Origin: Escherichia coli
GTDB lineage: Bacteria; Pseudomonadota; Gammaproteobacteria; Enterobacterales; Enterobacteriaceae
NCBI RefSeq assembly: GCF_003018255.1
Contig: NZ_CP027440.1
Reading direction: 5' to 3' (one strand)
DNA: 64,000 nucleotides
Part shown: positions 1-50,862 of the stretch, one piece after another
Layout: the number at the start of each line of letters is the position of its first letter
Numbering within the stretch: position 1 is the stretch's first letter
Position numbers and translations under genes: made by a program
Notes under the pieces: generated by a model
The model's input: the letters and a program-made list of their open reading frames with translations, nothing else
Told to the model about the DNA's origin: nothing
The model's database searches: none

Positions 1-1
1 G

Positions 2-2158
2 CAGGGCCATGAAACGCGGTATGAATACAACGCCGCCGGTGACCTGACCGCCGTCATTGCCCCGGACGGCAGCAGAAACGGGACACAGTACGATACGTGG
101 GGAAAGGCCATCCGTACCACGCAGGGTGGTCTGACGCGCAGTATGGAATACGATGCTGCCGGACGGGTCATCCGCCTGACCAGTGAAAACGGCAGCCACA
201 CCACCTTCCGTTACGATGTACTCGACCGGCTGATACAGGAAACCGGTTTTGACGGCCGCACACAGCGTTATCATCACGACCTGACCGGTAAACTTATCCG
301 CAGCGAGGATGAGGGGCTGGTCACCCACTGGCACTATGACGAAGCAGACCGCATCACGCACCGCACCGTGAAGGGTGAAACCGCAGAACAGTGGCGGTAC
401 GACGAACGCGGCTGGCTGACAGGCATCAGCCATCTCAGCGAAGGGCACCGGGTGACGGTGCATTACAGGTATGATGAGAAAGGCCGCCTGACCGGTGAGC
501 GCCAGACGGTGCATCACCCGCAGACGGAAGCACTGCTCTGGCAGCATGAGACCAGACATGCGTACAACGCGCAGGGGCTGGCGAACCGCTGTATACCGGA
601 CAGCCTGCCCGCCGTGGAATGGCTGACTTACGGCAGCGGCTGGCTGGCAGGCATGAAACTCGGCGACACACCGCTGGTGGATTTCACCCGTGACCGCCTG
701 CACCGGGAAACGCTGCGCAGCTTCGGCCGTTATGAACTCACCACCGCTTATACCTCTGCCGGGCAGTTACAGAGCCAGCACCTGAACAGCCTGCAGTATG
801 ACCGCGATTACACCTGGAACGACAACGGCGAACTCATCCGCATCAGCAGCCCGCGACAGACCCGGAGTTACAGCTACAGCGACTCCGGCAGGCTGACCGG
901 CGTCCACACCACCACCTCAAATCTGGATATCCGCATCCCGTATGCCACGGACCCGGCAGGTAACCGCCTGCCCGACCCGGAGCTGCACCCGGACAGCACC
1001 CTCAGCATGTGGCCGGATAACCGTATCGCCCGTGACGCGCACTATCTTTACCGGTATGACCGTCACGGCAGGCTGACAGAGAAAACCGACCTCATCCCGG
1101 AAGGGGTTATCCGCACGGATGATGAGCGGACTCACCGGTACCATTACGACAGCCGGCACCGGCTGGTGCACTACACGCGGACACAATATGCAGAGCCGCT
1201 GGTCGAAAGTCGCTATCTTTACGACCCGCTGGGCCGCAGGGTGGCAAAACGGGTATGGCGGCGTGAACGGGACCTGACGGGCTGGATGTCGCTGTCACGG
1301 AAACCGGAAGTGACCTGGTACGGCTGGGACGGCGACCGGCTGACCACGATACAGAACGACAGAACCCGCATCCAGACGGTTTATCAGCCGGGGAGCTTCA
1401 CGCCACTCATCAGGGTCGAAACCGCCACCGGAGAGCTGGCGAAAACGCAGCGCCGCAGCCTGGCGGATGCCCTTCAGCAGTCCGGCGGCGAAGACGGTGG
1501 CAGTGTGGTGTTCCCGCCGGTGCTGGTGCAGATGCTCGACCGGCTGGAAAGTGAAATCCTGGCTGACCGGGTGAGTGAGGAAAGCCGCCGCTGGCTGGCA
1601 TCGTGCGGCCTGACGGTGGAGCAGATACAAAACCAGATGGACCCGGTGTACACGCCGGCGCGAAAAATCCACCTGTACCACTGCGACCATCGCGGCCTGC
1701 CGCTGGCGCTTGTCAGCACGGAAGGGGCAACAGAATGGTGCGCAGAATACGATGAATGGGGCAACCTGCTGAATGAAGAGAACCCGCACCAGCTGCAGCA
1801 GCTCATCCGCCTGCCGGGTCAGCAGTATGATGAGGAGTCCGGCCTCTATTACAACCGCCACCGCTATTATGACCCGCTGCAGGGGCGGTATATCACTCAG
1901 GATCCGATTGGGCTTAAGGGGGGATGGAATTTTTATCAGTATCCGTTGAATCCGATCACTAATATAGATCCTTTAGGATTAGAAACACTAAAATGCATTA
2001 AGCCACTGCATTCAATGGGCGGAACTGGTGAAAGAAGCGGTCCAGATATATGGGGGAATCCGTTCTATCATCAATATCTTTGTGTCCCAGATGGTAAAGG
2101 GGACTATACTTGTGGTGGCCAAGACCAACGGGGAGAATCAAAAGGAGATGGTCTATAG
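2..2158 (+). CDS. rhsB: Rhs family protein, 3' part of core (YD repeats) through the DPxGL boundary plus a 57-aa C-terminal tip; 5' end lies upstream of the window
   Basis: Frame is open from position 2 with no stop until TAG at 2156-2158. Repeated YD/RYxYD motifs and the conserved core end [39 protein letters not shown] are present. Symbol assigned only from locus context (H-rpt yhhI and yhhJ-rbbA downstream). Confidence 0.85.
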
Positions 2159-2434
2159 GGGCCAGGTAAAGCAAGTAATGATACAAAAGAAGCTGCTGGC
2201 CGTTGTGACCTCGTTGAAACCGATAATAGTTGTGTGGAGAACTGTTTAAAAGGGAAGTTTAAAGAGGTAAGGCCGCGTTATTCTGTATTGCCTGATATAT
2301 TCACACCTATAAATTTAGGGCTATTTAAAAACTGCCAAGACTGGTCTAATGATTCTTTAGAAACATGTAAGATGAAGTGCTCCGGAAATAACATTGGACG
2401 TTTTATTAGATTTGTATTTACCGGAGTGATGTAA
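2159..2434 (+). other. In-frame continuation of the Rhs C-terminal region after a single amber codon; cysteine-rich 92-codon segment, possible distal half of a toxin domain
   Basis: Same reading frame as the rhs ORF; only TAG at 2156-2158 separates them, and the frame stays open to TAA at 2432-2434. AT-rich like typical Rhs-CT regions. Confidence 0.45.
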
Positions 2435-2760
2435 TGAAATGTATTATTTTTTTATTCAGAGCTATATGGCTGGCTTTATCGCTTTTAATACTATTCTTTT
2501 CCATGCATAGACTTTCACTATTAGACTCCACTCGTGATGTGAGCGAGTTAATTAGTCTCATGTCTTATGGAATGATGGTAATATGTTTTCCAACAGGCAT
2601 AGTATTCTTTATTGCTCTAATATTTATAGGGACTGTTTCAGACATTATTGGCGTAAGGATTGATAGTAAGTATATTATGGCGATAATAATATGGCTTTAT
2701 TTTCTGTCAGGAGGGTATATTCAATGGTTTGTATTAAGTAAGCGCATTATAAACAAATAA
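2434..2760 (+). CDS. Small predicted membrane protein (about 3 hydrophobic segments), candidate Rhs immunity protein
   Basis: 108-aa ORF whose ATG overlaps the preceding stop (TAATG); strongly hydrophobic stretches; position immediately after the Rhs-CT is typical for rhsI genes. Confidence 0.55.
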   Translation: MKCIIFLFRAIWLALSLLILFFSMHRLSLLDSTRDVSELISLMSYGMMVICFPTGIVFFIALIFIGTVSDIIGVRIDSKYIMAIIIWLYFLSGGYIQWFVLSKRIINK

Positions 2761-2805
2761 ATTAAGTTAATTGCTCTTGTTATTATATGTAACCTGGGCA
2801 TTGAT

Positions 2806-3275
2806 ATCCCGTATGCCACAGACCCGGCAGGCAACCGCCTGCCCGACCCGGAGCTGCACCCGGACAGCACCCTCAGCATGTGGCCGGATAACCGTATCGC
2901 CCGTGACGCGCACTATCTTTACCGGTATGACCGTCACGGCAGGCTGACAGAGAAAACCGACCTCATCCCGGAAGGGGTTATCCGCACGGATGATGAGCGG
3001 ACTCACCGGTACCATTACGACAGCCGGCACCGGCTGGTGCACTACACGCGGACACAATATGCAGAGCCGCTGGTCGAAAGCCGCTATCTTTACGACCCGC
3101 TGGGCCGCAGGGTGGCAAAACGGGTGTGGCGGCGTGAACGGGACCTGACGGGCTGGATGTCGCTGTCACGGAAACCGGAAGTGACCTGGTACGGCTGGGA
3201 CGGCGACCGGCTGACCACGATACAGAACGACAGAACCCGCATCCAGACGGTTTATCAGCCGGGGAGCTTCACGCC
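2806..3275 (+). pseudogene. Orphan rhs core fragment, near-identical duplicate of window positions about 938-1395
   Basis: Translation of 2878-3275 matches the rhs ORF almost residue-for-residue ([26 protein letters not shown]...[10 protein letters not shown]); homology breaks at 3275 where the H-rpt sequence starts. Confidence 0.85.
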
Positions 3276-4567
3276 CAGGGAAAGATCATCAGAAGTACAC
3301 TTTTTGTACTAAGTAATTCGCATTTTATGTTTAAAAATCGAGATATTCCTCATTACCTGAAGCTGTTTTTTATTGCGTATACATGATCAAATACTCCTTA
3401 CATAATTAAGGAGAACAAAATGGAACTTAAAAAATTGATGGAACATATTTCTATTATCCCCGATTACAGACAAGCCTGGAAAGTGGAACATAAATTGTCG
3501 GATATTCTACTGTTGACTATTTGTGCCGTTATTTCTGGTGCAGAAGGCTGGGAAGATATAGAGGATTTTGGGGAAACACATCTCGATTTTTTAAAACAAT
3601 ATGGTGATTTTGAAAATGGTATTCCTGTTCACGATACCATCGCCAGAGTTGTATCCTGTATCAGTCCTTCAAAATTTCACGAGTGCTTTATTAACTGGAT
3701 GCGAGATTGCCATACTTCAGATGATAAAGACGTCATCGCAATTGATGGAAAAACACTCCGGCATTCTTATGGCAAGAGTCGCCGCAGGGGAGCGATTCAT
3801 GTCATTAGTGCGTTCTCAACAATGCACAGTCTGGTCATCGGACAGATCAGGACGGATGAGAAATCCAATGAGATTACAGCTATCCCTGAACTTCTTAACA
3901 TGCTGGATATTAAAGGAAAAATAATCACAACTGATGCAATGGGTTGCCAGAAAGATATTGCAGAGAAGATACAAAAACAGGGCGGTGATTATTTATTCGC
4001 TGTAAAAGGAAATCAGGGGCGGCTAAATAAAGCCTTTGAGGAAAAATTCCCACTGAAAGAATTAAATAATCCAGAGCATGACAGTTACGCAATTAGTGAA
4101 AAGAGTCACGGCAGAGAAGAAATCCGTCTTCACATTGTTTGCGATGTCCCTGATGAACTTATTGATTTCACGTTTGAATGGAAAGGTCTGAAGAAATTAT
4201 GCGTGGCAGTCTCCTTTCGGTCAATAATAGCAGAACAAAAGAAAGAGCCAGAAATGACGGTCAGATATTATATCAGTTCTGCTGATTTAACCGCAGAGAA
4301 GTTCGCCATAGCAATCCGAAACCACTGGCACGTGGAGAATAAGCTGCACTGGCGTCTGGACGTGGTAATGAATGAAGACGACTGCAAAATAAGAAGAGGA
4401 AATGCAGCAGAATTATTTTCAGGGATACGGCACATTGCTATTAATATTTTGACGAATGATAAGGTATTCAAGGCAGGGTTAAGACGTAAGATGCGAAAAG
4501 CAGCCATGGACAGAAACTATCTCGCGTCAGTCCTTGCGGGGAGCGGGCTTTCGTAATCTTGCCCTGA
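3276..4567 (+). mobile_element. H-rpt (H-repeat, ISAs1-family) element, full-length copy
   Basis: About 1.3 kb unit containing a 378-aa transposase-like ORF; its 5' leader (3300-3420) and 3' end recur in the adjacent defective copy; boundaries approximate. Confidence 0.7.
3420..4556 (+). CDS. yhhI: H repeat-associated protein / ISAs1-family transposase
   Basis: 378-aa [35 protein letters not shown]... recognised as the H-rpt ORF; SD-like AAGGAG 8 nt upstream. Confidence 0.85.
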
Positions 4568-4613
4568 TCAGACCACCGTTGATCACCATATCCATGAGTT
4601 TATGAATAAAGGG

Positions 4614-5192
4614 CAGGGAAAGATCACGCAACGCTGCTTTTTTGTACTAAATAATTCGCACTAAATATTCAATAATTGAGATATTCCTTATTACCTAAAG
4701 CTGTTTTCCATTGCTTATACATGATCAAATACTCCTTACATAATTAAGGAGAACAAAATGGAACTTAAAAAATTGATGGAACATATTTCTATTATCCCCG
4801 ATTACAGACAAGCCTGGAAAGTGGAGCATAAATTGTCAGATATTCTACTGTTGACTATTTGTGCCGTTATTTCTGGTGCAGAAGGTTGGGAAGATATAGA
4901 GGATTTTGGGGAAACTCATCTCGATTTTTTGAAGCAATATGGTGATTTTGAAAATGGTATTCCTGTTCACGATACCATTGCCAGAGTTGTATCCTGTATC
5001 AGTCCTGAAAAATTTCACGAGTGCTTTATTAACTGGATGCGTGACTGCCATTCTTCAGATGATAAAGACGTCATTGTAATTGATGGAAAAACGCTCCGGC
5101 ACTCTTATGACAAGAGTCGCCGCAGGGGAGCGATTCATGTCATTTCTCGCGTCAGTCCTTGCGGGGAGCGGGCTTTCGTAATCTTGCCCTGA
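4614..5192 (+). mobile_element. Defective second H-rpt copy with large internal deletion
   Basis: Leader and first about 125 codons nearly identical to copy 1, then jumps directly to the last about 15 codons and 3' end of the element (junction near 5143). Confidence 0.7.
4758..5192 (+). pseudogene. Truncated yhhI-like transposase remnant (internal deletion)
   Basis: 144-aa ORF identical at the N-terminus to the 378-aa H-rpt ORF but lacking about 250 internal codons. Confidence 0.8.
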
Positions 5193-5209
5193 ATACCGGA
5201 CTGAGTATA

Positions 5210-5244
<35 letters not shown>

Positions 5245-5345
5245 TGGTCAGTTCATAAACGCCTTATCCGGCCTAAAAAAAACTAAAATTCAATAAATTG
5301 CACCAATGCGTAGACCCTATAAGCTTACGCATCGGGCAACTGTAA

Positions 5346-23455: not shown

Positions 23456-23539
23456 TCAGTTCAGAAGCTGAAGCAGAAAGCGGATCAGTTCCAGCAGCGC
23501 AATTAACGCCCCAAGAACGATGATTGCTTTATCAATCAC
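23456..23539 (-). CDS. dinQ: DinQ membrane toxin peptide (27 aa, GTG start), type I toxin
   Basis: Reverse-strand translation gives (V/M)IDKAIIVLGALIALLELIRFLLQLLN with SD GGAG 8 nt upstream of GTG; a LexA box lies upstream. Confidence 0.8.
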   Translation of the reverse strand: MIDKAIIVLGALIALLELIRFLLQLLN

Positions 23540-23730
23540 CCGTTTTCTCCATGCGATGGAGTGAGAATGCATCCGCTTACTCATCCACTGCCTGTCACGG
23601 CGCATGCCCCATTGTTAGATGTGGGCATTCTCACTCCGGCCAGAGCATCAGTTAACGGCACCACCCGTACTTCTGACCAGGACTTTGAAAGCGTTTATGC
23701 GCATTGCCAGAGTGAAAATGTCTCAGAGCT

Positions 23731-23809: not shown

Positions 23810-23894
23810 TGCGTTAGATGATGGCTATCTCACTCCAGTCAGAGCCACCAACTCAGGGCTGGAAAGTAAAAAACCGACGCAAAGTCGGTTTTTT
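23810..23894 (+). ncRNA. agrA: agrA-like small RNA (dinQ-homologous antisense repeat)
   Basis: Repeat unit sharing GCTATCTCACTCC with dinQ (antisense) and ending in terminator CCGACGCAAAGTCGG plus TTTTTT; ends approximate. Confidence 0.65.
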
Positions 23895-24043
23895 ACATCC
23901 GGATTCGGACAAGGCCTGGTACGGCAGCGACCCGATGAAAGTATATAAATCCTCTTTCACCAACATGTATAGCAAACTGTCCCTCCGCCAGCTGAAGAAA
24001 TCGCTAACGCTTGCAATGTTAGCCACTGGCTAATAGTATTGAA

Positions 24044-24128
24044 CCGTTAGATGTGGGCATTCTCACTCCAGCCAGAGCCACCAACTCAGGGCTGGAAAGT
24101 AAAAAACCGACGCAAAGTCGGTTTTTTT
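24044..24128 (+). ncRNA. agrB: agrB-like small RNA (antisense regulator of dinQ)
   Basis: Second repeat unit; carries GCATTCTCACTCC exactly complementary to dinQ 23558-23570; same terminator hairpin plus T7. Confidence 0.65.
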
Positions 24129-24201
24129 ACGTCCTGATTCAGACCTCCTTTCAAATGAATACCCAACTCAAAATTCACACCTATTACCTTCCTCTGCACT
24201 T

Positions 24202-31242: not shown

Positions 31243-31302
31243 ACGATTGATCAATATAAAGAGGCCCAGCAATAAATAGCCAGACCTCCCGTTAATTATA
31301 CG

Positions 31303-32331
31303 TTATGCAGTAACGACTTCCGGTATCAGCGAAGCAATTTGCTTACGCCATTGCGCTTGCTCCTGTTCGCCTTCTGTACGTTGACCATAAAGTTGCGCTA
31401 TCTGCGTACCATCATGGGCAAACAATTCCAGACTGGTTACGTAGCCATCGCTGGTCGGTTTACGGGTAACCCAGGCTTCAGCAATGCTCTCTTCTAATAG
31501 ATGAAGAGTAAACGTCGGGTTGAAAATATTCAGCCAACCTTTCATTGGCACCACTTTTTCTACCACACCAGTGAAAATCTGTACGCAGCCACGGTTGCCA
31601 ACAAACACCATGATTTCATTGCCATCCTGCTGTGCAGATTCAAGAATTTGCGCCAACGCACTGTTGGATACTTTGCAGGCCAAATCATCTGCCACCAGAT
31701 TGAACGCCTGTTGGCGCGTCAGGTTGTGGCGCTTGAGCAACGTAAAAAACTGATGAACGTCGGTCATCGCCCGCCACTCTTGCTCGACCACACTGGCATC
31801 GGCTCGCGTTTGAACAACTGGCGCATCAACGGCTTTTAACTCAAGCGGCATATTCTCATCGGCGATAAACCGTGCCAGAAGCTCACTCCATGCCGCCATA
31901 TCGGTATTGTCGGTGGCATAAACTTTTAGTAATGCATCGCCCTGATGATCAAAGAACTGAATACTCTGGCGTTCGCCACGAGTCGTATTTTCTTTAATGT
32001 GAAAAACACTGGCCCATTGATTGAGAAACAGACGCAAATCCAGCGCGCGTGGATTGAGGATCAATCCGGCATGTCCGTTCAAATGCTGGTTTGTGAACGC
32101 ACCAACTTGCTCATGGACTGCATATTCATTACGACAAATACATTTGGTCTCGCCAACACTTTCGAGCGCCGCCAGAATTTCACGGATATCGCCGCGCATC
32201 CGCCACGCATCGTGCGTGACGCGCGCAAATGCCAGTTCTGCTTCGCTAATATTCATTAAACCTGCGATGTCACGCGCGTACTTTCCGGGATTTTGTTCTT
32301 TTAACTCAAGCCAGCGTGTGTAGTGGTTCAT
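31303..32331 (-). CDS. chuS: Haem oxygenase / haem-degrading protein
   Basis: 342-aa ORF recognised as ChuS/HemS family; downstream of chuA on the same strand. Confidence 0.85.
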   Translation of the reverse strand: MNHYTRWLELKEQNPGKYARDIAGLMNISEAELAFARVTHDAWRMRGDIREILAALESVGETKCICRNEYAVHEQVGAFTNQHLNGHAGLILNPRALDLRLFLNQWASVFHIKENTTRGERQSIQFFDHQGDALLKVYATDNTDMAAWSELLARFIADENMPLELKAVDAPVVQTRADASVVEQEWRAMTDVHQFFTLLKRHNLTRQQAFNLVADDLACKVSNSALAQILESAQQDGNEIMVFVGNRGCVQIFTGVVEKVVPMKGWLNIFNPTFTLHLLEESIAEAWVTRKPTSDGYVTSLELFAHDGTQIAQLYGQRTEGEQEQAQWRKQIASLIPEVVTA

Positions 32332-32379
32332 TGTCTCTCTTCCTTCCAGATAAATGCCCCGAAATATCGGGGCAGATGA

Positions 32380-34362
32380 TTACCATTGATAACTCACGAA
32401 AATTTTTCCATTACGACCATCCTGTGGGATGCCTTGTGGCGACCAGTACTCTTTGTCGAAAGCGTTACCCAACACCAAAGTAGTGGTCATACCTTTGAGC
32501 GCCTGTTGTCCTTGATAACTGACGTAGAAATCATTCACGCCATAGCCTGGTTGTTTGCTGTAACTGCTGCTGATATGTGTTGAGCGATCGGCAAACGTAC
32601 CAACCCACCCAACAGAGAAGCCACTGTGAGCGATCGGAATATTCAGGGTGCTGGTAACGGTATCCGGGTTAATACTGGAGATATATTCGCCGGTATCGGT
32701 GTCTTTGCCGCGGGTACGGTTATAGGCCACATCAAGGCTAAACAGATCAGTGGTATATTTCGTCATCACATCCCAACCCCAGATTTTGGCGTTCGGGACG
32801 TTATACGACATAGTTGTCGCCGCCGCGAAATCGACGGTCGTGGAGATGTAATCCTTCGCTTTGGTATCAAAGTAGCTGGCTTTAAATTCCAGAGCATCAT
32901 TGGACAACATCAGGTCATCAAAACGCAGCCCAAAACCGTACTCCTGAGTTTCGTTAGTTTCCGGACGTAAGTTCGGGTTTGGCACCCAATAGTTGGTATA
33001 GAAGCGACCAATCGAGAAGTGCTTAGAATCGTTATACATTTCGCCCATCGTCGGGGCGCGGAATGCCTGAGCATATGAGCCAAATAACATCAGCCAGTTA
33101 GTCGGGTTGATAGTCATCCCCGCGCGAGATGACCATTTGTCGGCATCAACATCTTTGTAGCCGTCGCTGCTACCGCGATAACTGTCATAGCGGGTTCCGC
33201 CAAGCAGGGTAATCGGCAGATCGCGTAAGGTGATCTCATCTTGTAGCCAGCCAGAGCTAAAATCGATTTTTGCTTGCGGGAAGCCCGTCGTCGCGCCACC
33301 CGGATGTTGTTCCTGACGATAATACTCACCGCCATATGTCAGTAAGTGAGAAGCGAAACTGTCGGCAAATAGAGTGGAACGGTTCTCCAGCCTTGCTCCT
33401 TTTGTTATCTGTTCACGATACTCGCCGGAACTCCCCGTGTTTTGCGCATTAATACGGACTTCCGACCAGTAAATTTTTGCATCTGCATTTAACCAGTCGT
33501 TACCCTGCGGGGCGAGTTTATAAGAAAGCTGCGCATCGCGTTGAATTGTTGAACGATCGACCATCGGGTTGCTGCTATCAGAAGCTTCAACGGTCTGCGG
33601 ATTTTTTGGTTCACGCGCGTCGTTGTTGTAGTAACGCACTAAACCGCTCAGAGACTGAGCTGAATCAATTTGCCAGGTCCCTTTCGCCAGCATGTTATTA
33701 ATGGATTCGTCATTCGGCGCGGTTTCACCATTGCTCTGGCGTAAATCACCCCGATCGCGACTGGACCAGGCCACAATACCATCCAGATTTTCAGTTCGCC
33801 CAAACGCGCTCGCGCCTAATCCCAGGCTATGGTCCCCCGTGCCGCCAGTACCAAAGACACGAAAACCACTGCTTTGTCCTTCCTGCAATAAATCTTTTGC
33901 ATCGACCGTATCGTAGGAGATCACTCCACCCAGCGCGCCACTGCCATACAGTAATGCTGAAGGTCCGCGAACAATCTCAACACGCTTGATCAGCGCCGGA
34001 TCGAGAAAAGTGCCATTCAGGTGTCCGGTATCCGTTCCCTGGCGAACACCATCGACAAGAACCAGCACGCCGCGATGATCATAGCCACGCATATTTACAT
34101 CCTGACCGTTGGTTCGTCCGGTACCATCAAGAGTAATTCCAGGAACATGACGCAGCAGATCGGTGGCTGAAGTAGCCGTTTGATTTTCAGGAGCGGAAGT
34201 GTCGATGACGCTGACCATCATAGGCGCTTCGAAGGAACTACGGGCATTCCCCGTTGCCGTAACGGTCATGGTTTCAGTAGCAAAAGCAAACGTTGGCAAG
34301 GTGGCAGAAACAGCCAAAGCCAACAAACTCAAACGCAACGAGGTAAATTGCGGACGTGACAT
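32380..34362 (-). CDS. chuA: TonB-dependent outer membrane haem/haemoglobin receptor
   Basis: 660 aa; signal peptide, plug domain, C-terminal beta-barrel ending in aromatic residue (...YQW); SD GGAG 8 nt upstream of ATG. Confidence 0.9.
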   Translation of the reverse strand: MSRPQFTSLRLSLLALAVSATLPTFAFATETMTVTATGNARSSFEAPMMVSVIDTSAPENQTATSATDLLRHVPGITLDGTGRTNGQDVNMRGYDHRGVLVLVDGVRQGTDTGHLNGTFLDPALIKRVEIVRGPSALLYGSGALGGVISYDTVDAKDLLQEGQSSGFRVFGTGGTGDHSLGLGASAFGRTENLDGIVAWSSRDRGDLRQSNGETAPNDESINNMLAKGTWQIDSAQSLSGLVRYYNNDAREPKNPQTVEASDSSNPMVDRSTIQRDAQLSYKLAPQGNDWLNADAKIYWSEVRINAQNTGSSGEYREQITKGARLENRSTLFADSFASHLLTYGGEYYRQEQHPGGATTGFPQAKIDFSSGWLQDEITLRDLPITLLGGTRYDSYRGSSDGYKDVDADKWSSRAGMTINPTNWLMLFGSYAQAFRAPTMGEMYNDSKHFSIGRFYTNYWVPNPNLRPETNETQEYGFGLRFDDLMLSNDALEFKASYFDTKAKDYISTTVDFAAATTMSYNVPNAKIWGWDVMTKYTTDLFSLDVAYNRTRGKDTDTGEYISSINPDTVTSTLNIPIAHSGFSVGWVGTFADRSTHISSSYSKQPGYGVNDFYVSYQGQQALKGMTTTLVLGNAFDKEYWSPQGIPQDGRNGKIFVSYQW

Positions 34363-34651
34363 AGCGATTCTCCATGAGGAAAATAAAAAATGCTGGCTGC
34401 CTGGGTTAATACCGGGGTGGCTGGCGAAAAATAAATTTATTTAAAATTCAGAGCGATAATATTCGCCGGGTGAGTTTACAGGCGTTTATATCCCATGAAA
34501 TTGCCTGGTATCTCGGCAAATACGCAAAAGCACGCCCTCTTTGTCAGGCAAACCGATATGCCCCATCAGGAGTGAAGAGCGCTGTGCGTTACCCCTTGTA
34601 AATGATATGGCTTTGTTATCCATATGGCCGTATTTTGTTAAATGCAAACGT

Positions 34652-34670
34652 GATAATGAGAATTATTATC
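34652..34670 (-). promoter_or_regulatory. Fur box upstream of chuA
   Basis: GATAATGAGAATTATTATC, close match to the Fur consensus GATAATGATAATCATTATC; about 290 bp upstream of the chuA ATG, implying a long 5' UTR. Confidence 0.7.
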
Positions 34671-35003
34671 GATCAATTTTTTATGATCAAGCTTTTTTTT
34701 AACCGCCATTAACACAATAAACAGGGGGTTATGAAACTTATCCTGCGCCCTGGAAACCACTTTGCTTTTATGGTTATTCCCCCATGACCTCATCACTAAA
34801 CTTTGTCGTTAACAGTGATAATTTTCTCTTCTCTTTGCTCTGCAAGCCGCGATATCTCTGGGTTCTCAGCTTTTTCCCGCGCTGAAATTTAGTCGGTAAC
34901 AAGAACGTTAGCTGACGAAGCATCTTGATAAAAATCAAAAATAAATACGCTTGTAACGCCGTGCGTATTGAATCGACGGTTGTATTTCATATATAACTCA
35001 AAT

Positions 35004-35022
35004 GATAATCATGATCATTCTC
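35004..35022 (+). promoter_or_regulatory. Fur box upstream of chuT
   Basis: GATAATCATGATCATTCTC immediately upstream of the proposed chuT start. Confidence 0.65.
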
Positions 35023-35045
35023 AATTTGATAAGAGTTCTCATATT

Positions 35046-35960
35046 ATGCCAAGGATCATCACCAGGCCGTTTCTTTTTTCCCCACTGACGTTATGTATTT
35101 CAGCCGTGGCCTCTGCCGCGAAGACCGCGGTAAAACGAAAAAAATTGTTTACGGCAGTACTGGCTCTTAGCTGGGCTTTTAGCGTAACGGCTACCGAACG
35201 TATCGTGGTCGCAGGAGGATCGCTGACGGAGCTAATCTACGCGATGGGCGCTGGCGAACGCGTGGTTGGTGTCGATGAAACGACATCTTATCCACCAGAA
35301 ACCGCCAAACTGCCGCATATTGGTTACTGGAAACAACTCAGCAGCGAAGGCATTTTGTCACTTCGCCCGGATAGCGTAATTACCTGGCAGGATGCAGGAC
35401 CGCAAATTGTGCTCGACCAACTGCGGGCGCAAAAAGTCAACGTCGTCACTCTGCCGCGTGTACCAGCCACCCTTGAGCAGATGTACGCCAACATTCGCCA
35501 ACTGGCAAAAACGTTACAGGTTCCTGAACAAGGCGAGGCGCTGGTGACACAGATCAACCAACGCCTGGAGCGAGTACAGCAAAACGTGGCGGCCAAAAAA
35601 GCCCCGGTTAAAGCCATGTTTATTCTCTCCGCAGGCGGAAGTGCGCCACAGGTTGCCGGTAAAGGCAGCGTCGCGGACGCCATTCTTTCGCTTGCCGGAG
35701 CAGAAAACGTCGCTACCCACCAGCAGTACAAAAGCTACAGCGCGGAATCGCTGATTGCGGCTAACCCTGAAGTGATTGTCGTCACCTCACAAATGGTCGA
35801 TGGCGATATTAATCGGCTACGTTCTATTGCCGGAATTACCCACACTGCCGCATGGAAAAACCAGCGCATTATCACCGTTGATCAAAACCTGATTCTGGGA
35901 ATGGGTCCGCGTATTGCTGATGTCGTTGAGTCTTTACACCAGCAGCTTTGGCCGCAATAA
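35046..35960 (+). CDS. chuT: Periplasmic haem-binding protein
   Basis: Class III periplasmic binding protein sequence; start is uncertain. The ORF track begins at 34968, but that ATG lies upstream of the Fur box, so the second ATG at 35046 is chosen. Confidence 0.7.
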   Translation: MPRIITRPFLFSPLTLCISAVASAAKTAVKRKKLFTAVLALSWAFSVTATERIVVAGGSLTELIYAMGAGERVVGVDETTSYPPETAKLPHIGYWKQLSSEGILSLRPDSVITWQDAGPQIVLDQLRAQKVNVVTLPRVPATLEQMYANIRQLAKTLQVPEQGEALVTQINQRLERVQQNVAAKKAPVKAMFILSAGGSAPQVAGKGSVADAILSLAGAENVATHQQYKSYSAESLIAANPEVIVVTSQMVDGDINRLRSIAGITHTAAWKNQRIITVDQNLILGMGPRIADVVESLHQQLWPQ

Positions 35961-35979
35961 ATGGATTTAAATCAGACGA

Positions 35980-37317
35980 ATGAACACAAATAACACCCTG
36001 GATCTCACGCCACATTTTGCTTTAGACGGTGATCAGCCATTTAAAGACAGGCGCGCCATGATGCCGTTTCGTGGGGCCATTCCAGTTGCCAAAGAGCAAC
36101 TGACACAGACCTGGCAAGAGATGCTCAATCAAACGGTATCACCACGTAAGCGACTGGTTTATCTACACATTCCTTTTTGTGCGACACACTGCACGTTTTG
36201 TGGTTTTTATCAGAACCGTTTTAATGACGATGCGTGTGCTCATTATACCGACGCCCTGATTCGTGAAATAGAAATGGAAGCAGACAGCGTATTGCATCAG
36301 TCTGCCCCCATCCACGCGGTCTATTTCGGTGGCGGTACGCCTTCCGCGCTTTCAGCACACGATTTGGCCAGAATCATCACCACATTACGAGAAAAGCTGC
36401 CACTGGCCCCTGATTGTGAAATCACTATTGAAGGCCGGGTACTGAATTTTGACGCTGAGCGAATCGATGCTTGCCTTGATGCTGGAGCAAACCGCTTCTC
36501 AATTGGTATTCAGTCGTTTAACAGCAAAATCCGCAAGAAAATGGCCCGCACCTCGGATGGCCCAACCGCTATTGCGTTTATGGAAAGCCTGGTCAAACGC
36601 GACCGTGCCGCGGTGGTCTGTGACCTGCTGTTTGGTCTGCCGGGTCAGGATGCGCAAACCTGGGGAGAAGATCTGGCTATTGCCCGCGATATCGGTCTCG
36701 ACGGCGTCGATCTCTATGCGCTCAATGTCCTGCCCAATACACCGCTGGGCAAAGCCGTGGAAAATGGGCGTACTACCGTGCCCTCTCCGGCAGAACGTCG
36801 CGATCTTTACCTGCAAGGGTGTGATTTTATGGACGATGCCGGTTGGCGCTGCATCAGTAACAGCCACTGGGGCCGTACCACACGCGAACGCAATCTCTAT
36901 AACCTGCTGATTAAACAAGGTGCCGATTGTCTGGCCTTTGGTTCCGGAGCCGGCGGTTCGATTAATGGTTACTCCTGGATGAACGAACGCAATCTTCAGA
37001 CCTGGCATGAATCCGTCGCAGCAGGTAAAAAACCGCTGATGATGATCATGCGTAACGCCGAACGTAACGCGCAGTGGCGTCATACCTTGCAGTCGGGCAT
37101 TGAAACGGCGCGTGTACCGCTGGACGAACTTACGCCACATGCCGAAAAACTCGCGCCGTTACTGGCCCAGTGGCACCAAAAAGGCTTAAGCCGCGATGCG
37201 TCAACGTGTCTGCGGTTGACCAATGAAGGTCGTTTCTGGGCAAGCAACATTTTGCAGTCTCTTAATGAACTGATTCAGGTACTTAATGCGCCAGCAATTG
37301 CGCTTGAAAAACCATAA
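35980..37317 (+). CDS. chuW: Radical SAM haem-degrading methyltransferase (anaerobilin synthase)
   Basis: 445 aa with radical SAM motif CATHCTFC. Confidence 0.85.
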   Translation: MNTNNTLDLTPHFALDGDQPFKDRRAMMPFRGAIPVAKEQLTQTWQEMLNQTVSPRKRLVYLHIPFCATHCTFCGFYQNRFNDDACAHYTDALIREIEMEADSVLHQSAPIHAVYFGGGTPSALSAHDLARIITTLREKLPLAPDCEITIEGRVLNFDAERIDACLDAGANRFSIGIQSFNSKIRKKMARTSDGPTAIAFMESLVKRDRAAVVCDLLFGLPGQDAQTWGEDLAIARDIGLDGVDLYALNVLPNTPLGKAVENGRTTVPSPAERRDLYLQGCDFMDDAGWRCISNSHWGRTTRERNLYNLLIKQGADCLAFGSGAGGSINGYSWMNERNLQTWHESVAAGKKPLMMIMRNAERNAQWRHTLQSGIETARVPLDELTPHAEKLAPLLAQWHQKGLSRDASTCLRLTNEGRFWASNILQSLNELIQVLNAPAIALEKP

Positions 37318-37329
37318 CAGGAGTGATTT

Positions 37330-37824
37330 ATGAGCCATGTCTCGTTACAGGAATTTTTGAAAACGGAGCCAGACGGTACGCTGGAGGCGATCGCCGAACA
37401 ATACAACACCACGCTGCTGGAGGTAGTGAAAAATCTGCCCTCTCCGACTGTTGTGTCAGGTGATAAATTCGATACTGTCTGGGATACCGTCTGCGAATGG
37501 GGCAACGTCACCACGTTAGTACATACTACCGATGTAATACTCGAATTTAGCGGCGAACTGCCTTCGGGTTTCCATCGCCACGGCTATTTCAACCTACGCG
37601 GAAAGCACGGCATGTCCGGGCATATCAAAGCAGAAAACTGCACGCATATTGCCTTGATCGAACGTAAATTTATGGGCATGGATACCGCCTCTATTCTCTT
37701 TTTCAATAAGGAAGGCAGCGCAATGCTGAAAATCTTCCTCGGTAGGGATGATCATCGTCAGCTCCTGAGCGAACAAGTCAGTGCCTTCCATGCTCTGGCA
37801 GCATCGTTAAAGGAACACGCCTGA
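37330..37824 (+). CDS. chuX: Haem utilisation protein ChuX
   Basis: 164-aa ORF in the chuTWXY cluster. Confidence 0.8.
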   Translation: MSHVSLQEFLKTEPDGTLEAIAEQYNTTLLEVVKNLPSPTVVSGDKFDTVWDTVCEWGNVTTLVHTTDVILEFSGELPSGFHRHGYFNLRGKHGMSGHIKAENCTHIALIERKFMGMDTASILFFNKEGSAMLKIFLGRDDHRQLLSEQVSAFHALAASLKEHA

Positions 37825-38447
37825 TGACACCGTGGCTACTCTTTGGCGCAGGCGGAAAAGGTGTGGGTGCCAGAACGCTTGAACTGGCGCTGGCGGAACA
37901 ACGTCCGGTCGTTGCTGTCATTCGTCATGCCGATGCCGCCACGAAACTGGCGCAACAAGGCGTACAGGTTTTTACAGGCGACGCCTGTGATGCCAGCGTA
38001 GTCGCGGCTGCTTGCCGCGCAGCTGGCCCGGATGCGCTTATCATCTCAACAATGGGCGGAGCTCAGGATTATCTGGCGCACAGAACAGTGATTGACGAGG
38101 CCGAGAAAGCAGGCATCACACGCATGATTCTGGTGACGTCACTGGGATGCGGCGATAGCTGGCCGTTTTTATCAGAGCGGGCAAAGGCTGCGTTTGGTCA
38201 GGCGGTACGGGAAAAAACGCTGGCGGAAAGCTGGTTGCAAACCAGCCAGCTTGATTATGCCATTCTCCGCCCTGGCGGTCTGCTTGATGGTGCGGCAACG
38301 GGCAAAGCACAACGGATACAAAATCAGGAGTGTCATGGTTTTATTAACCGTGCTGATGTCGCCGCACATATCCATGAACTGGCAAATGCGCCAGCACTTA
38401 ACCAGCAGGTCTACAGTCTGATTGAACCGGACCTGAAACCGGCGTGA
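37824..38447 (+). CDS. chuY: NAD(P)H-dependent anaerobilin reductase
   Basis: 207 aa with N-terminal Rossmann-like glycine motif; start overlaps the chuX stop. Confidence 0.8.
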   Translation: MTPWLLFGAGGKGVGARTLELALAEQRPVVAVIRHADAATKLAQQGVQVFTGDACDASVVAAACRAAGPDALIISTMGGAQDYLAHRTVIDEAEKAGITRMILVTSLGCGDSWPFLSERAKAAFGQAVREKTLAESWLQTSQLDYAILRPGGLLDGAATGKAQRIQNQECHGFINRADVAAHIHELANAPALNQQVYSLIEPDLKPA

Positions 38448-38495
38448 TCCCCCGGCGCGGCATGTCCGCGCCGTAATGTCGTAACGGAGTTTTGC

Positions 38496-39488
38496 GTGCT
38501 CAAGGATTCACTCTCTTCCGCCAGGGTCTTTATGGGGCTATCACTATTATTGCTAGCTCTGGTGCTGTTTGGTGCCAGTCAGGGAGCGTTAAAGATCAGT
38601 TTTGATGCCCTTTTTGATGAGGAATACCGCGATATCTGGCTCAATATTCGTCTACCACGGGTTTTGCTGGCGGTGCTGGTAGGTGCAGCGTTGGCAACCG
38701 CCGGGGTAATTATGCAGGGGCTTTTTCGCAACCCAATGGCTGACCCTGGATTACTTGGCGTCAGTAGCGGTTCTGCATTAATGGTTGGCGTTGCTATTGT
38801 GCTGCCCTTCTCCTTCCCAGTGGTGCTGGTGCTCTATGAGCAAATGGTGTTTGCCATTGCCGGAAGTTTAGTGGTCTGCACCATCATTTTTCTCATCACG
38901 CAGCGCCATCGCGATGGCAGCATGATGCAATTATTACTCGCCGGTATCGCCATCAATGCCCTGTGCGGCGCAGCGATCGGCATCCTGAGCTATATCGGCG
39001 ATGAGCAGCAGCTACGACAACTCACATTGTGGATGATGGGCAATCTTGGACAGGCGCAATGGCCGACGTTATTGGTTGCCAGTTCATTCATCCTACCGGC
39101 CATTATCGCAACAACTTGTCTCGCCGGAACGCTGAATTTACTGCAGCTCGGTGATGAAGAAGCCCATTACCTCGGCGTGAACGTTAAGCGTAAACGCCAG
39201 CAATTACTGTTAGTGAGCTCACTGCTCGTTGGTGCCGCCGTATCGGTAAGCGGCATTATCGGCTTTATTGGCCTGGTGATCCCGCATCTGATTCGCATGA
39301 CTACCGGAGCAAATCACCGCTGGCTAATCCCTTGCTCCGCCCTCGCCGGAGCCTGTTTATTGCTGATGGCAGACACGCTTGCCCGCACGCTGGTACAGCC
39401 AGCAGAAATGCCCGTGGGATTATTAACCAGCCTGCTTGGTGGTCCTTATTTTATGTGGTTGATTCTGCGCAACCGGAGGATCACATGA
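38496..39488 (+). CDS. chuU: Haem ABC transporter permease (FecCD family)
   Basis: 330 aa, GTG start, polytopic. Confidence 0.85.
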
Positions 39489-40255
39489 TCAGCGCCCAGA
39501 ATCTGGTTTATAGCCTTCAGGGGCGGCGTCTGACTGATAATGTCTCGCTGACTTTTCCCGGTGGGGAAATTGTTGCCATTCTCGGCCCTAATGGTGCGGG
39601 AAAATCTACGCTGCTTCGCCAGTTAACCGGCTATCTTCAACCTGATAGCGGCGAATGTCGGTTGTTTAATAAGCCATTAAATGAATGGTCGATTACTGAA
39701 CTGGCGAAACACCGGGCCGTGATGCGTCAAAATAGCCACATGGCGTTTCCATTCAGCGTACAAGAAGTTATCCAGATGGGGCGGCATCCGCATCGCACTG
39801 GTAATCAGGATAATGAAACAGCACAAATAATGGCGTTATGTGACTGTCAGGCGTTAGCAAACCGCGACTATCGGCAATTATCCGGTGGTGAACAACAGCG
39901 CGTACAATTAGCGCGCCTGCTGGTGCAACTCTGGGAACCAACTCCCTCACCGAAATGGTTATTTCTTGATGAACCAACTTCGGCGCTGGATATTCACCAT
40001 CAGCAGCACTTGTTCCGTTTATTACGCCAGTTAGTTCACGAACGGCAGTTCAATGTTTGCTGCGTATTGCACGATCTAAATCTTGCCGCGCGTTATGCAG
40101 ACCGTATTGTATTAATGCAAAAAGGAAAGGTTATCGCAAATGGTAAACCACAGGACGTATTGACACAGCAGGCGCTGACCATGCTTTACGGCGCGGATAT
40201 TACCGTACTTAAAGATCCTGCCAACCATTCACCCCTGATCGTCCTCGATCATTAA
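39485..40255 (+). CDS. chuV: Haem ABC transporter ATP-binding protein
   Basis: Start set at [16 protein letters not shown] overlapping the chuU stop (ATGA); Walker [10 protein letters not shown] and signature LSGGEQQR. Confidence 0.85.
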
Positions 40256-40306
40256 AACCAACAGGAGTACCGCACTGGTACTCCTGCGAATAAATAACTA
40301 TACAGA

Positions 40307-43945: not shown

Positions 43946-44283
43946 TCAGGACATAAGCAACTGAAATTGATGGCTGGCATGACGAGGGATGCAGATGCTG
44001 ATTTCATTACCCCCGGTGATTACTAAAGGAGAGGCGAAAACGACTTTATTCCCCTGGTATATGTATCCACCAGTAGAACCCTTCGTTGCCCGAATGCTGG
44101 CAGGAACTGTTGGCAGAACGGCAACATTTTTTTTGTCGTTGACCTCACCATGTCGATCACTGTGCCTGTATCCCACCTTACTGGCTGACAACCCCACTAT
44201 GCCGCTGGTCTGTAAATCCCTCATATCTCTCCTCGCGCGCAATTTAAAGAACCGTTATTTCTCAAGAATTTTCAGGGACTAAA

Positions 44284-48941: not shown

Positions 48942-49670
48942 TCAGGAAAAGGTACCTGGCGAATGTTGCGCAAACTGATGTGGCGTTACACCATAATATT
49001 GTCGAAATGTGTTTATAAAGTACGACGTACTGCTATAGCCACATTTTTCCGCAATAGTATGCAGAGGAATTTGACGTAACTCGAGTAATCGTCTGGCCAT
49101 CGACATCCTGGAGGCGAGTAATATTTTACTGAAACAGGTATTTTCATCCTGCAACTTTTTTTTGATGAGACTCTCGCTGGTATACATTCTTTCCGCAATA
49201 TCGCGCAGATACCAACGTTTGGCGATATCAAAGCTAATAAGGCGTTCAACTTTTCCTGAAACAGTACTGATACTATTGAAAAGTAAGGGGATCAGTTCTT
49301 TCTTATGAGAAAACATCGATAAACAGGAAAGATAGAGCATTTTGCTCAATATCGGCGAATTTACCCCGGAGTCATTGAAACTATCAAAAATCGCCGTCAC
49401 CAGCGGCATGGGGGGTGACTGGTTAATTAACAGACGGTCTTTGCTATGTAACCCTAAATTGCGTGGTATCTGACGAATATTTTGTAAGTAATGGCAAACT
49501 GTCAGCTCATCGATATCCAGTCGTCGTGTATCCGGTGAACAAAACGCAAAATCGTCTGCCAAATTTTTATCCAGTAACAGGATACTCTCGTTATGCAACG
49601 ATATTTTTTGCTGTTCATGATGAATATCGAATGAACGACGAACGAGGATCACCGAGCAGACATGAGTCAT
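48942..49670 (-). CDS. gadW: AraC-family regulator GadW
   Basis: 242 aa, C-terminal AraC-type HTH. Confidence 0.9.
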   Translation of the reverse strand: MTHVCSVILVRRSFDIHHEQQKISLHNESILLLDKNLADDFAFCSPDTRRLDIDELTVCHYLQNIRQIPRNLGLHSKDRLLINQSPPMPLVTAIFDSFNDSGVNSPILSKMLYLSCLSMFSHKKELIPLLFNSISTVSGKVERLISFDIAKRWYLRDIAERMYTSESLIKKKLQDENTCFSKILLASRMSMARRLLELRQIPLHTIAEKCGYSSTSYFINTFRQYYGVTPHQFAQHSPGTFS

Positions 49671-49916
49671 GACTATCCCTTATATTTCATTGCTGCGATT
49701 ATTTCAATTTCAGTATACTAATGAAATGATGCCTGACTGTTTCTTAGCGCAAAAACTGCCAGATTTGGTAGGACCAAAATTTATCCACAAAGTAGTTTTG
49801 CATAACAGTTAATTGATAATAAGTAAATGCAACACGAATATATTTTCGCACAGCGTATAGCTTATGTTTATAAAAAAATGGCTGATCTTATTTCCAGTAA
49901 AAGTTATATTTAACTT

Positions 49917-50021
49917 ACTGAGAGCACAAAGTTTCCCGTGCCAACAGGGAGTGTTATAACGGTTTATTAGTCTGGAGACGGCAGACTATCCTCTTCCCGG
50001 TCCCCTATGCCGGGTTTTTTT
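49917..50021 (+). ncRNA. gadY: GadY small RNA, cis-antisense to the gadX 3' UTR
   Basis: Sequence ACTGAGAGCACAAAGTTTCCCGTGCCAACAGGGAG... matches GadY as recalled and ends in terminator CCCGG-N10-CCGGG plus TTTTTTT. Confidence 0.8.
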
Positions 50022-50037
50022 ATGTCTGAGTAAAACT

Positions 50038-50862
50038 CTATAATCTTATTCCTTCCGCAGAACGGTCAGTGCCGTAAAAATTCCCTTGCGCAGCCATACT
50101 TGCCGCCGGGCCACAGTTCGGTAATTCCTGCGCCGATCGCTCCTGATACTCTGTGGGCGTCATCCCATAATAATTTCGAAAAACGTAAATGAAATACGAC
50201 ACGCTGTGATATCCACAGGATACTGCAACTCGCTTAATTGAAACCCCATATATAACAATAAGTTGTAAAGCACGCTGCATCCTACACTCAGTAAGCAACT
50301 GTGAATATGACGTACCTTCTTCGCGCAATTTTTTCTTTAACAGGCTTGGACTCATCAACAATTCGCTAGCGATTCGGGCTAATGTCCACTCATGGGCGAT
50401 ATTATTATTGATGACCGTACAAACTCGTGTTCGCATATTCGGTTGCAACACGTTCAGAAGTAACGGTATAAACTGCGTATCCTCAAGAAAAACAGATAAC
50501 AACGCAAAGATTAATGCCCTTTTACGTAGCATTTCTGCATAGCGAAGATTCTTATTCTGCGACAGTTGCGCAACTTCCTGAAAAACAGGAATATCTCTGG
50601 TACAGTGATGAACGAGTAATGAAGGAACTTTTTTATGTGCATGAAGTTTTAATGCCTCCTCCTTGAGCATCGGGAGAAATAATGAAAGCGTGTCTCTTGA
50701 AACTAATACGAAATTCTCAACACACTTATCCACTTGAATTTGGCTTGCATCCGCAAAAACCAGATCACCGCCATTAAAATAGCGATATTCACCATTAACC
50801 ATGGTGAGAATATATTTATGTCTTGCGTACGCAATTAGACAATTACCATGTAGTGGTTGCAT
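50038..50862 (-). CDS. gadX: AraC-family regulator GadX
   Basis: 274 aa, paralog of GadW, position upstream of gadA on the same strand. Confidence 0.9.
   Translation of the reverse strand: MQPLHGNCLIAYARHKYILTMVNGEYRYFNGGDLVFADASQIQVDKCVENFVLVSRDTLSLFLPMLKEEALKLHAHKKVPSLLVHHCTRDIPVFQEVAQLSQNKNLRYAEMLRKRALIFALLSVFLEDTQFIPLLLNVLQPNMRTRVCTVINNNIAHEWTLARIASELLMSPSLLKKKLREEGTSYSQLLTECRMQRALQLIVIYGVSIKRVAVSCGYHSVSYFIYVFRNYYGMTPTEYQERSAQELPNCGPAASMAAQGNFYGTDRSAEGIRL

Follow-up and report, generated by a model that had tools for sequence, protein, structure and literature searches.

The closest described system is GadY (IS183) of Escherichia coli K-12, an antisense small RNA whose gene lies between gadW and gadX and on the opposite strand from both. 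The gadY gene yields RNAs of 105, 90 and 59 nt that share their 3' end (PMC3050690), and in K-12 its transcripts are sigma-S dependent and bind Hfq (PMC3050690, PMC11300174). In the model of 2004, as outlined in two papers, GadY overlaps the 3' end of the gadX mRNA by at least 30 nt and the gadX mRNA is stabilised (PMC3050690, PMC10057817). A result of 2011, as cited in two papers, is that GadY directs cleavage of the bicistronic gadX-gadW mRNA, with RNase III taking part; in an rnc mutant the mRNA is still cleaved, at shifted sites (PMC3919570, PMC10783499). Reported trans activities of GadY are titration of CsrA, with an effect on biofilm (PMC10057817), and pairing with sdiA mRNA (PMC11300174).

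Three other antisense systems–OOP RNA and cII-O of phage lambda, Sok/hok, and OrzO/zorO–resemble GadY in that the antisense RNA pairs with an overlapping transcript, the duplex is cut by RNase III, and residual cleavage is seen in rnc mutants (PMC3919570). GadY differs from all three in raising the level of its target mRNA instead of repressing it, in binding Hfq, and in overlapping a 3' UTR and intercistronic region rather than a 5' region or coding sequence.

We analysed a stretch of 64,000 nucleotides of E. coli DNA, referred to here as the window. In a scan with all Rfam families, plus-strand positions 49914-50026 match the GadY model RF00122 with 145.6 bits (gathering score 45). The match spans the full length of the model (positions 1-114 of 114), with E = 1.6e-31 in a scan of 10 kb and 1e-30 in the whole 64-kb window. 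As the K-12 reference we used the curated MG1655 gadY gene (b4452; NC_000913.3, 3664864-3664969, +), whose neighbours are gadW (3663890-3664618, -) and gadX (3664986-3665810, -), and we placed gadY in the window by aligning the entire gadW-gadX intergenic region to MG1655. By this alignment gadY is located at 49917-50021 (+), with 0 substitutions from +1 through the terminator stem; relative to b4452 only the tail differs, having 7 T rather than 8 T, and the gene is 105 nt long here and 106 nt as annotated in K-12. K-12 also has the same bases throughout the promoter (-50 to -1) and the 16-nt spacer that separates gadY from the gadX stop codon. The features of the locus are as follows.

49917-50021, + strand: gadY small RNA gene, full-length form (RF00122 match and b4452 alignment).
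49905-49910, + strand: -10 hexamer TATATT, 6 nt upstream of +1, read from the sequence, confirmed by script and identical to K-12.
49882-49887, + strand: weak -35 element CTGATC, with a 17-bp spacer.
49878-49885, + strand: octamer ATGGCTGA, which fits the AppY motif ATGSCWGM (regular-expression match) and overlaps the -35 element.
49917-49963, + strand: SL1, the 5' stem-loop, present only in the longest GadY form and containing one GGA (minimum free energy fold and Rfam structure; -10.3 kcal/mol).
49968-49988, + strand: SL2, the central stem-loop, with a GGA where the stem meets the loop (minimum free energy fold and Rfam structure; -8.7 kcal/mol).
49996-50014, + strand: intrinsic terminator hairpin with a 6-bp stem, 5 G-C pairs and a 7-nt loop (terminator scan; -8.8 kcal/mol).
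50015-50021, + strand: 7-T tract forming the terminator tail (count of the T run; K-12 and most E. coli have 8 T).
50022-50037, no strand assigned: 16-nt spacer ATGTCTGAGTAAAACT, identical to K-12, outside the RNA; the gadX 3' UTR begins with it on the minus strand.
50038-50862, - strand: gadX coding sequence, 274 amino acids, with its TAG stop codon at 50038-50040, the cis target (from the list of open reading frames; 100% identical to the annotated gadX of strain FDAARGOS_497).
48942-49670, - strand: gadW coding sequence, 242 amino acids, the downstream cistron of the gadX-gadW transcript (from the list of open reading frames and annotation transfer).

Further out, the locus is flanked by mdtF upstream and by gadA, ccp and treF downstream. 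The model score, the orthology to b4452, the position and strand, and the presence of the gene's own promoter and Rho-independent terminator all agree with membership of RF00122, and we are highly confident that 49917-50021 (+) is orthologous to gadY of E. coli K-12, a gene of the acid fitness island for a cis-encoded antisense small RNA. A small protein is not a plausible reading of the interval: six-frame translation of 49900-50040 gave no plausible open reading frame on either strand, all frames being interrupted by stop codons. Compared with K-12 GadY, the window has the same sequence, promoter, three hairpins, terminator, strand, flanking genes and 16-nt distance from gadX, but it has 7 T where K-12 has 8, and it carries the other major class of gadX allele, which is 6.1% of nucleotides and 18 amino acid changes away. 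The gadY gene is left unannotated by PGAP in every RefSeq genome listed and is annotated only in the curated MG1655 record; this reflects the annotation pipeline and not the absence of the gene.

A sequence-only reading of this DNA had proposed a plus-strand unit with the GadY sequence and a strong terminator, lying between gadW and gadX in the K-12 cis-antisense arrangement. It had named alignment to K-12 gadY as the check; we ran this alignment, and the RNA, promoter and spacer came through it with 0 substitutions. The RF00122 score and the b4452 alignment bear out the plus-strand GadY unit, the proposed start (49917) is exact, and gene order, strands (gadW -, gadY +, gadX -) and the 16-nt gap are those of K-12. 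The proposed end (50037) has to be moved, since the next base already belongs to the gadX stop codon and the RNA ends 16 nt earlier, at about 50021; the same reading's distance of 17 bp from the gadX stop fits an RNA end at 50021, with 16 bases between as in K-12. The terminator has the canonical hairpin and T7 tail but, at -8.8 kcal/mol with a 6-bp stem, is not exceptionally strong. The proposed overlap with the gadX 3' end holds at the level of transcripts (the 3' UTR and gadX-gadW readthrough RNA) but does not extend into the gadX coding sequence. The proposed stabilisation of gadX mRNA matches the 2004 model for K-12 but needs to be updated with the 2011 cleavage result (cited in PMC3919570, PMC10783499).

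We placed the gadY promoter from the -10 hexamer and from the sequence it shares with K-12. A generic sigma-70 scan did not call it, the -35 element being weak, and this is unsurprising because the promoter is reported to be sigma-S dependent. An AppY motif ATGSCWGM has been reported over the gadY -35 element, and AppY binds the gadY promoter (PMC10057817). The three hairpins of the minimum free energy fold agree with the Rfam consensus structure. The folding energy of the whole RNA (-28.6 kcal/mol) is not better than that of shuffled sequences (z = -0.64), and is no evidence either way. The gadX-sense strand can form the same hairpins with no U-tract after them, an arrangement that appears consistent with readthrough into gadW.

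If the locus works as in K-12, then in stationary phase or acid the sigma-S-dependent promoter, which would also be activated by AppY, would produce an RNA of about 105 nt, to be processed into forms of about 90 and 59 nt with one shared 3' end. Calculated from the lengths reported, the 5' ends of the processed forms would lie near 49932 and 49963. The GadY forms would bind Hfq and form a perfect duplex with the gadX 3' UTR and with the intercistronic RNA of gadX-gadW; as in any cis-antisense arrangement, complementarity to the gadX 3' UTR and to gadX-gadW readthrough RNA is perfect by construction. Cleavage of the duplex, partly by RNase III, would then let gadX (and gadW) transcripts accumulate and GadX rise, which would induce the glutamate-dependent acid-resistance genes gadA, gadBC and gadE.

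The gadY region is more conserved than its surroundings. Relative to K-12, none of the 171 nucleotides of the promoter, RNA and spacer is substituted, compared with 4.3% in the flanking gadW, intergenic and gadX sequence; at that flanking rate the probability of 0 in 171 is about 5e-4. Over individual genes the divergence from K-12 is 22/729 in gadW (3.0%), 50/825 in gadX (6.1%, with 18 amino acid changes), 27/1401 in gadA, and 1.3% in the 3' part of mdtF. The block of zero substitutions relative to K-12 runs from 49833 to 50092, and so exceeds the RNA on both sides. Such an extent could be read as conservation of DNA-level elements of the gadW-gadX intergenic region (gadW promoters and GadX/GadW boxes) with no functional RNA in this strain, and divergent gadY-gadW promoters with 42-bp GadX/GadW sites have been described (Tramonti 2008, cited in PMC11300174). 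We regard this explanation as extremely improbable, because across species the conserved block narrows to the interval from +1 through the terminator, because the terminator hairpin and T-tract are features that act at the level of RNA, and because the covariance model matches over its full length.

That narrowing is seen among the Escherichia loci recovered by an exact-pattern scan of 100,044 species-representative genomes. The scan found gadY in five records from this genus (two under the name E. coli, along with E. whittamii, sp. E1V33 and sp. MOD1-EC7003), with scores of 123-150 bits against the Rfam GadY model; it forces 28 positions, and missing matches in E. albertii, E. fergusonii and other genera do not mean that gadY is absent from them. 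In the alignment of four Escherichia lineages, the variable columns amount to 5 of 73 in gadY and 42 of 103 in the flanks (Fisher p = 2.5e-7; the counts exclude the 28 forced positions, and two of the 5 variable gadY columns are gap columns of the T run). The variable flanking columns number 15 of 63 upstream and 27 of 40 downstream, and divergence starts directly after the T-tract. We take this comparison, together with the lack of substitutions relative to K-12 and the near-identity of gadY across the E. coli genomes described below, to indicate strong purifying selection on exactly the gadY interval. One substitution, G49947T, found in E. whittamii and strain E1V33, breaks a pair of SL1 with no compensation. 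Covariation support for the three hairpins is not assessable among the Escherichia homologues, which are too similar and differ by only two substitutions.

Within E. coli we surveyed 5,426 complete genomes. The gadY gene and its promoter (49867-50014) are at least 99% identical to the window in 5380 of the 5412 genomes that have them, and 24 of 25 evenly spaced rows of the survey are 100% identical. In about 14 of the 5426 genomes, among them the B-strain derivative B95.deltaA and strain KFu015, gadY is missing or the region is incomplete; a few genomes have gadY in two copies. This near-invariance of gadY and its promoter across E. coli, almost unchanged in three other Escherichia lineages, is a new but minor observation.

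A different account of the conservation is that the main selected function of GadY is exerted in trans, by titration of CsrA and by Hfq-dependent pairing with unlinked mRNAs such as sdiA, with the cis effect on gadX being secondary. Near-invariance extends over all 105 nt and takes in the 5' hairpin, which the shorter forms lack and which is not within the minimal 30-nt overlap (PMC3050690), and gadY is far more conserved than the gadX gene that it regulates. The RNA also contains two GGA motifs, one of them at the loop of SL2, and both CsrA titration with biofilm effects (PMC10057817) and sdiA targeting (PMC11300174) have been described. Against a mainly trans-acting role, the antisense position beside gadX is kept in every Escherichia locus recovered, and the entire RNA is complementary to gadX-gadW readthrough RNA, so cis pairing alone could constrain its sequence. 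The trans roles have, moreover, been shown mostly by overexpression in K-12, and they are compatible with a cis role rather than exclusive of it. We consider it possible but doubtful that trans action is the main selected function; beside the cis-antisense pairing with gadX that we prefer, trans roles may contribute to the conservation of full-length GadY.

The single difference from K-12, the 7-T tract, is rare: the exact 76-mer containing it is present in only 41 of 5410 complete E. coli genomes, about 99% of complete E. coli genomes having 8 T and strain E1V33 having 9 T. We considered the 7-T tract as a lineage marker and rejected it, as the 41 carriers are spread over unrelated strains (APEC O1, ATCC 25922, porcine ETEC and K-12-sized strains). 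The rarity of the tract might be thought to mean that the 7-T form is functionally different, with weaker termination or Hfq binding and altered GadY activity in this strain, but we find this very unlikely: the phylogenetic scatter of the carriers fits slippage or sequencing error, another ATCC 25922 assembly appears among the gadX matches, and a 9-T version exists too. Seven U residues should still make a normal terminator and Hfq tail. The likeliest origin of the 7 T is homopolymer slippage or sequencing error rather than a lineage-specific functional allele, and a tail shorter by one T would be expected to leave termination and Hfq binding intact.

The gadX coding sequence is, by its identity to the window allele, bimodal in E. 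coli: 1446 genomes are at least 99% identical, 174 are at 95-99%, and 3795 are at 90-95%. The window allele is also found in ATCC 25922 and FDAARGOS_497, and the K-12 type (93.9%) falls within the 90-95% class. Between the window and K-12, gadX has dN/dS of 0.18, and its dS of 0.18 compares with 0.09 for gadA. Nine substitutions cluster in the 35 nt at 50093-50127 and alter 7 of the 12 residues of GadX 246-257; there are no indels, and the last 55 nt of the gadX coding sequence, adjoining gadY, are the same as in K-12. To explain a frozen gadY beside gadX alleles that diverge only 55 nt inside the coding sequence, one could propose that selection comes mainly from CsrA titration and trans targets, or that a recombination boundary keeps two GadX variants under common RNA control, with the 7-T tail perhaps additionally tuning the 3' end; we give this proposal little credence.

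Several other elements were seen in the window. An Rfam match to the ES205 small RNA is located at 44063-44134 (+; 105 bits, gathering score 86), between gadE and mdtE and on the gadE strand. This match, we presume, may correspond to GadF, the small RNA derived from the gadE 3' UTR. In FDAARGOS_497, PGAP annotates a "hypothetical protein" across the ES205 region on the opposite strand (43946-44224), and ES205 is also upstream of gadY in loci L004 and L005. Two matches to the Rfam family of AgrB antisense RNAs, at 23814-23897 and 24047-24130 (+; 101 and 108 bits), adjoin the site of the dinQ type I toxin gene of a related strain (23538-23621, -), which is the known dinQ-agrA/agrB locus.

The window also contains a whole chu heme-uptake cluster (chuS, chuA, chuT, W, X, Y, U and V) at about 31300-40260, between dctR and yhiD in the acid fitness island; K-12 is without this insertion, which is typical of chuA-positive phylogroups. 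At the start of chuA there is an Rfam match to the shuA/chuA 5' UTR thermoregulator (34360-34391, -; 60.1 bits, gathering score 58). The start of the window (1-5345) is inside an Rhs element, with an Rhs core C-terminus and tip at 143-2158, an orphan Rhs fragment at 2878-3312, a DDE H-repeat transposase at 3420-4556 and a truncated copy at 4758-5192. In FDAARGOS_497, the best match at the gad locus, nikR and a hicAB pair occupy this place and the Rhs region is missing; the identity of the window to that strain is 97-98% from about 5.3 kb to 49.9 kb, where the compared locus ends.

The gadY gene described here is an already-known gene in its canonical place and brings nothing new for small RNA biology, and the pairing of a near-invariant gadY with a dimorphic gadX is only a mildly informative by-product. 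The identification is useful for annotation, PGAP leaving gadY out. For the acid fitness island, it means that the sequence of the GadY-gadX antisense module has been kept intact despite a non-K-12 gadX allele and the insertion of the chu heme-uptake cluster.
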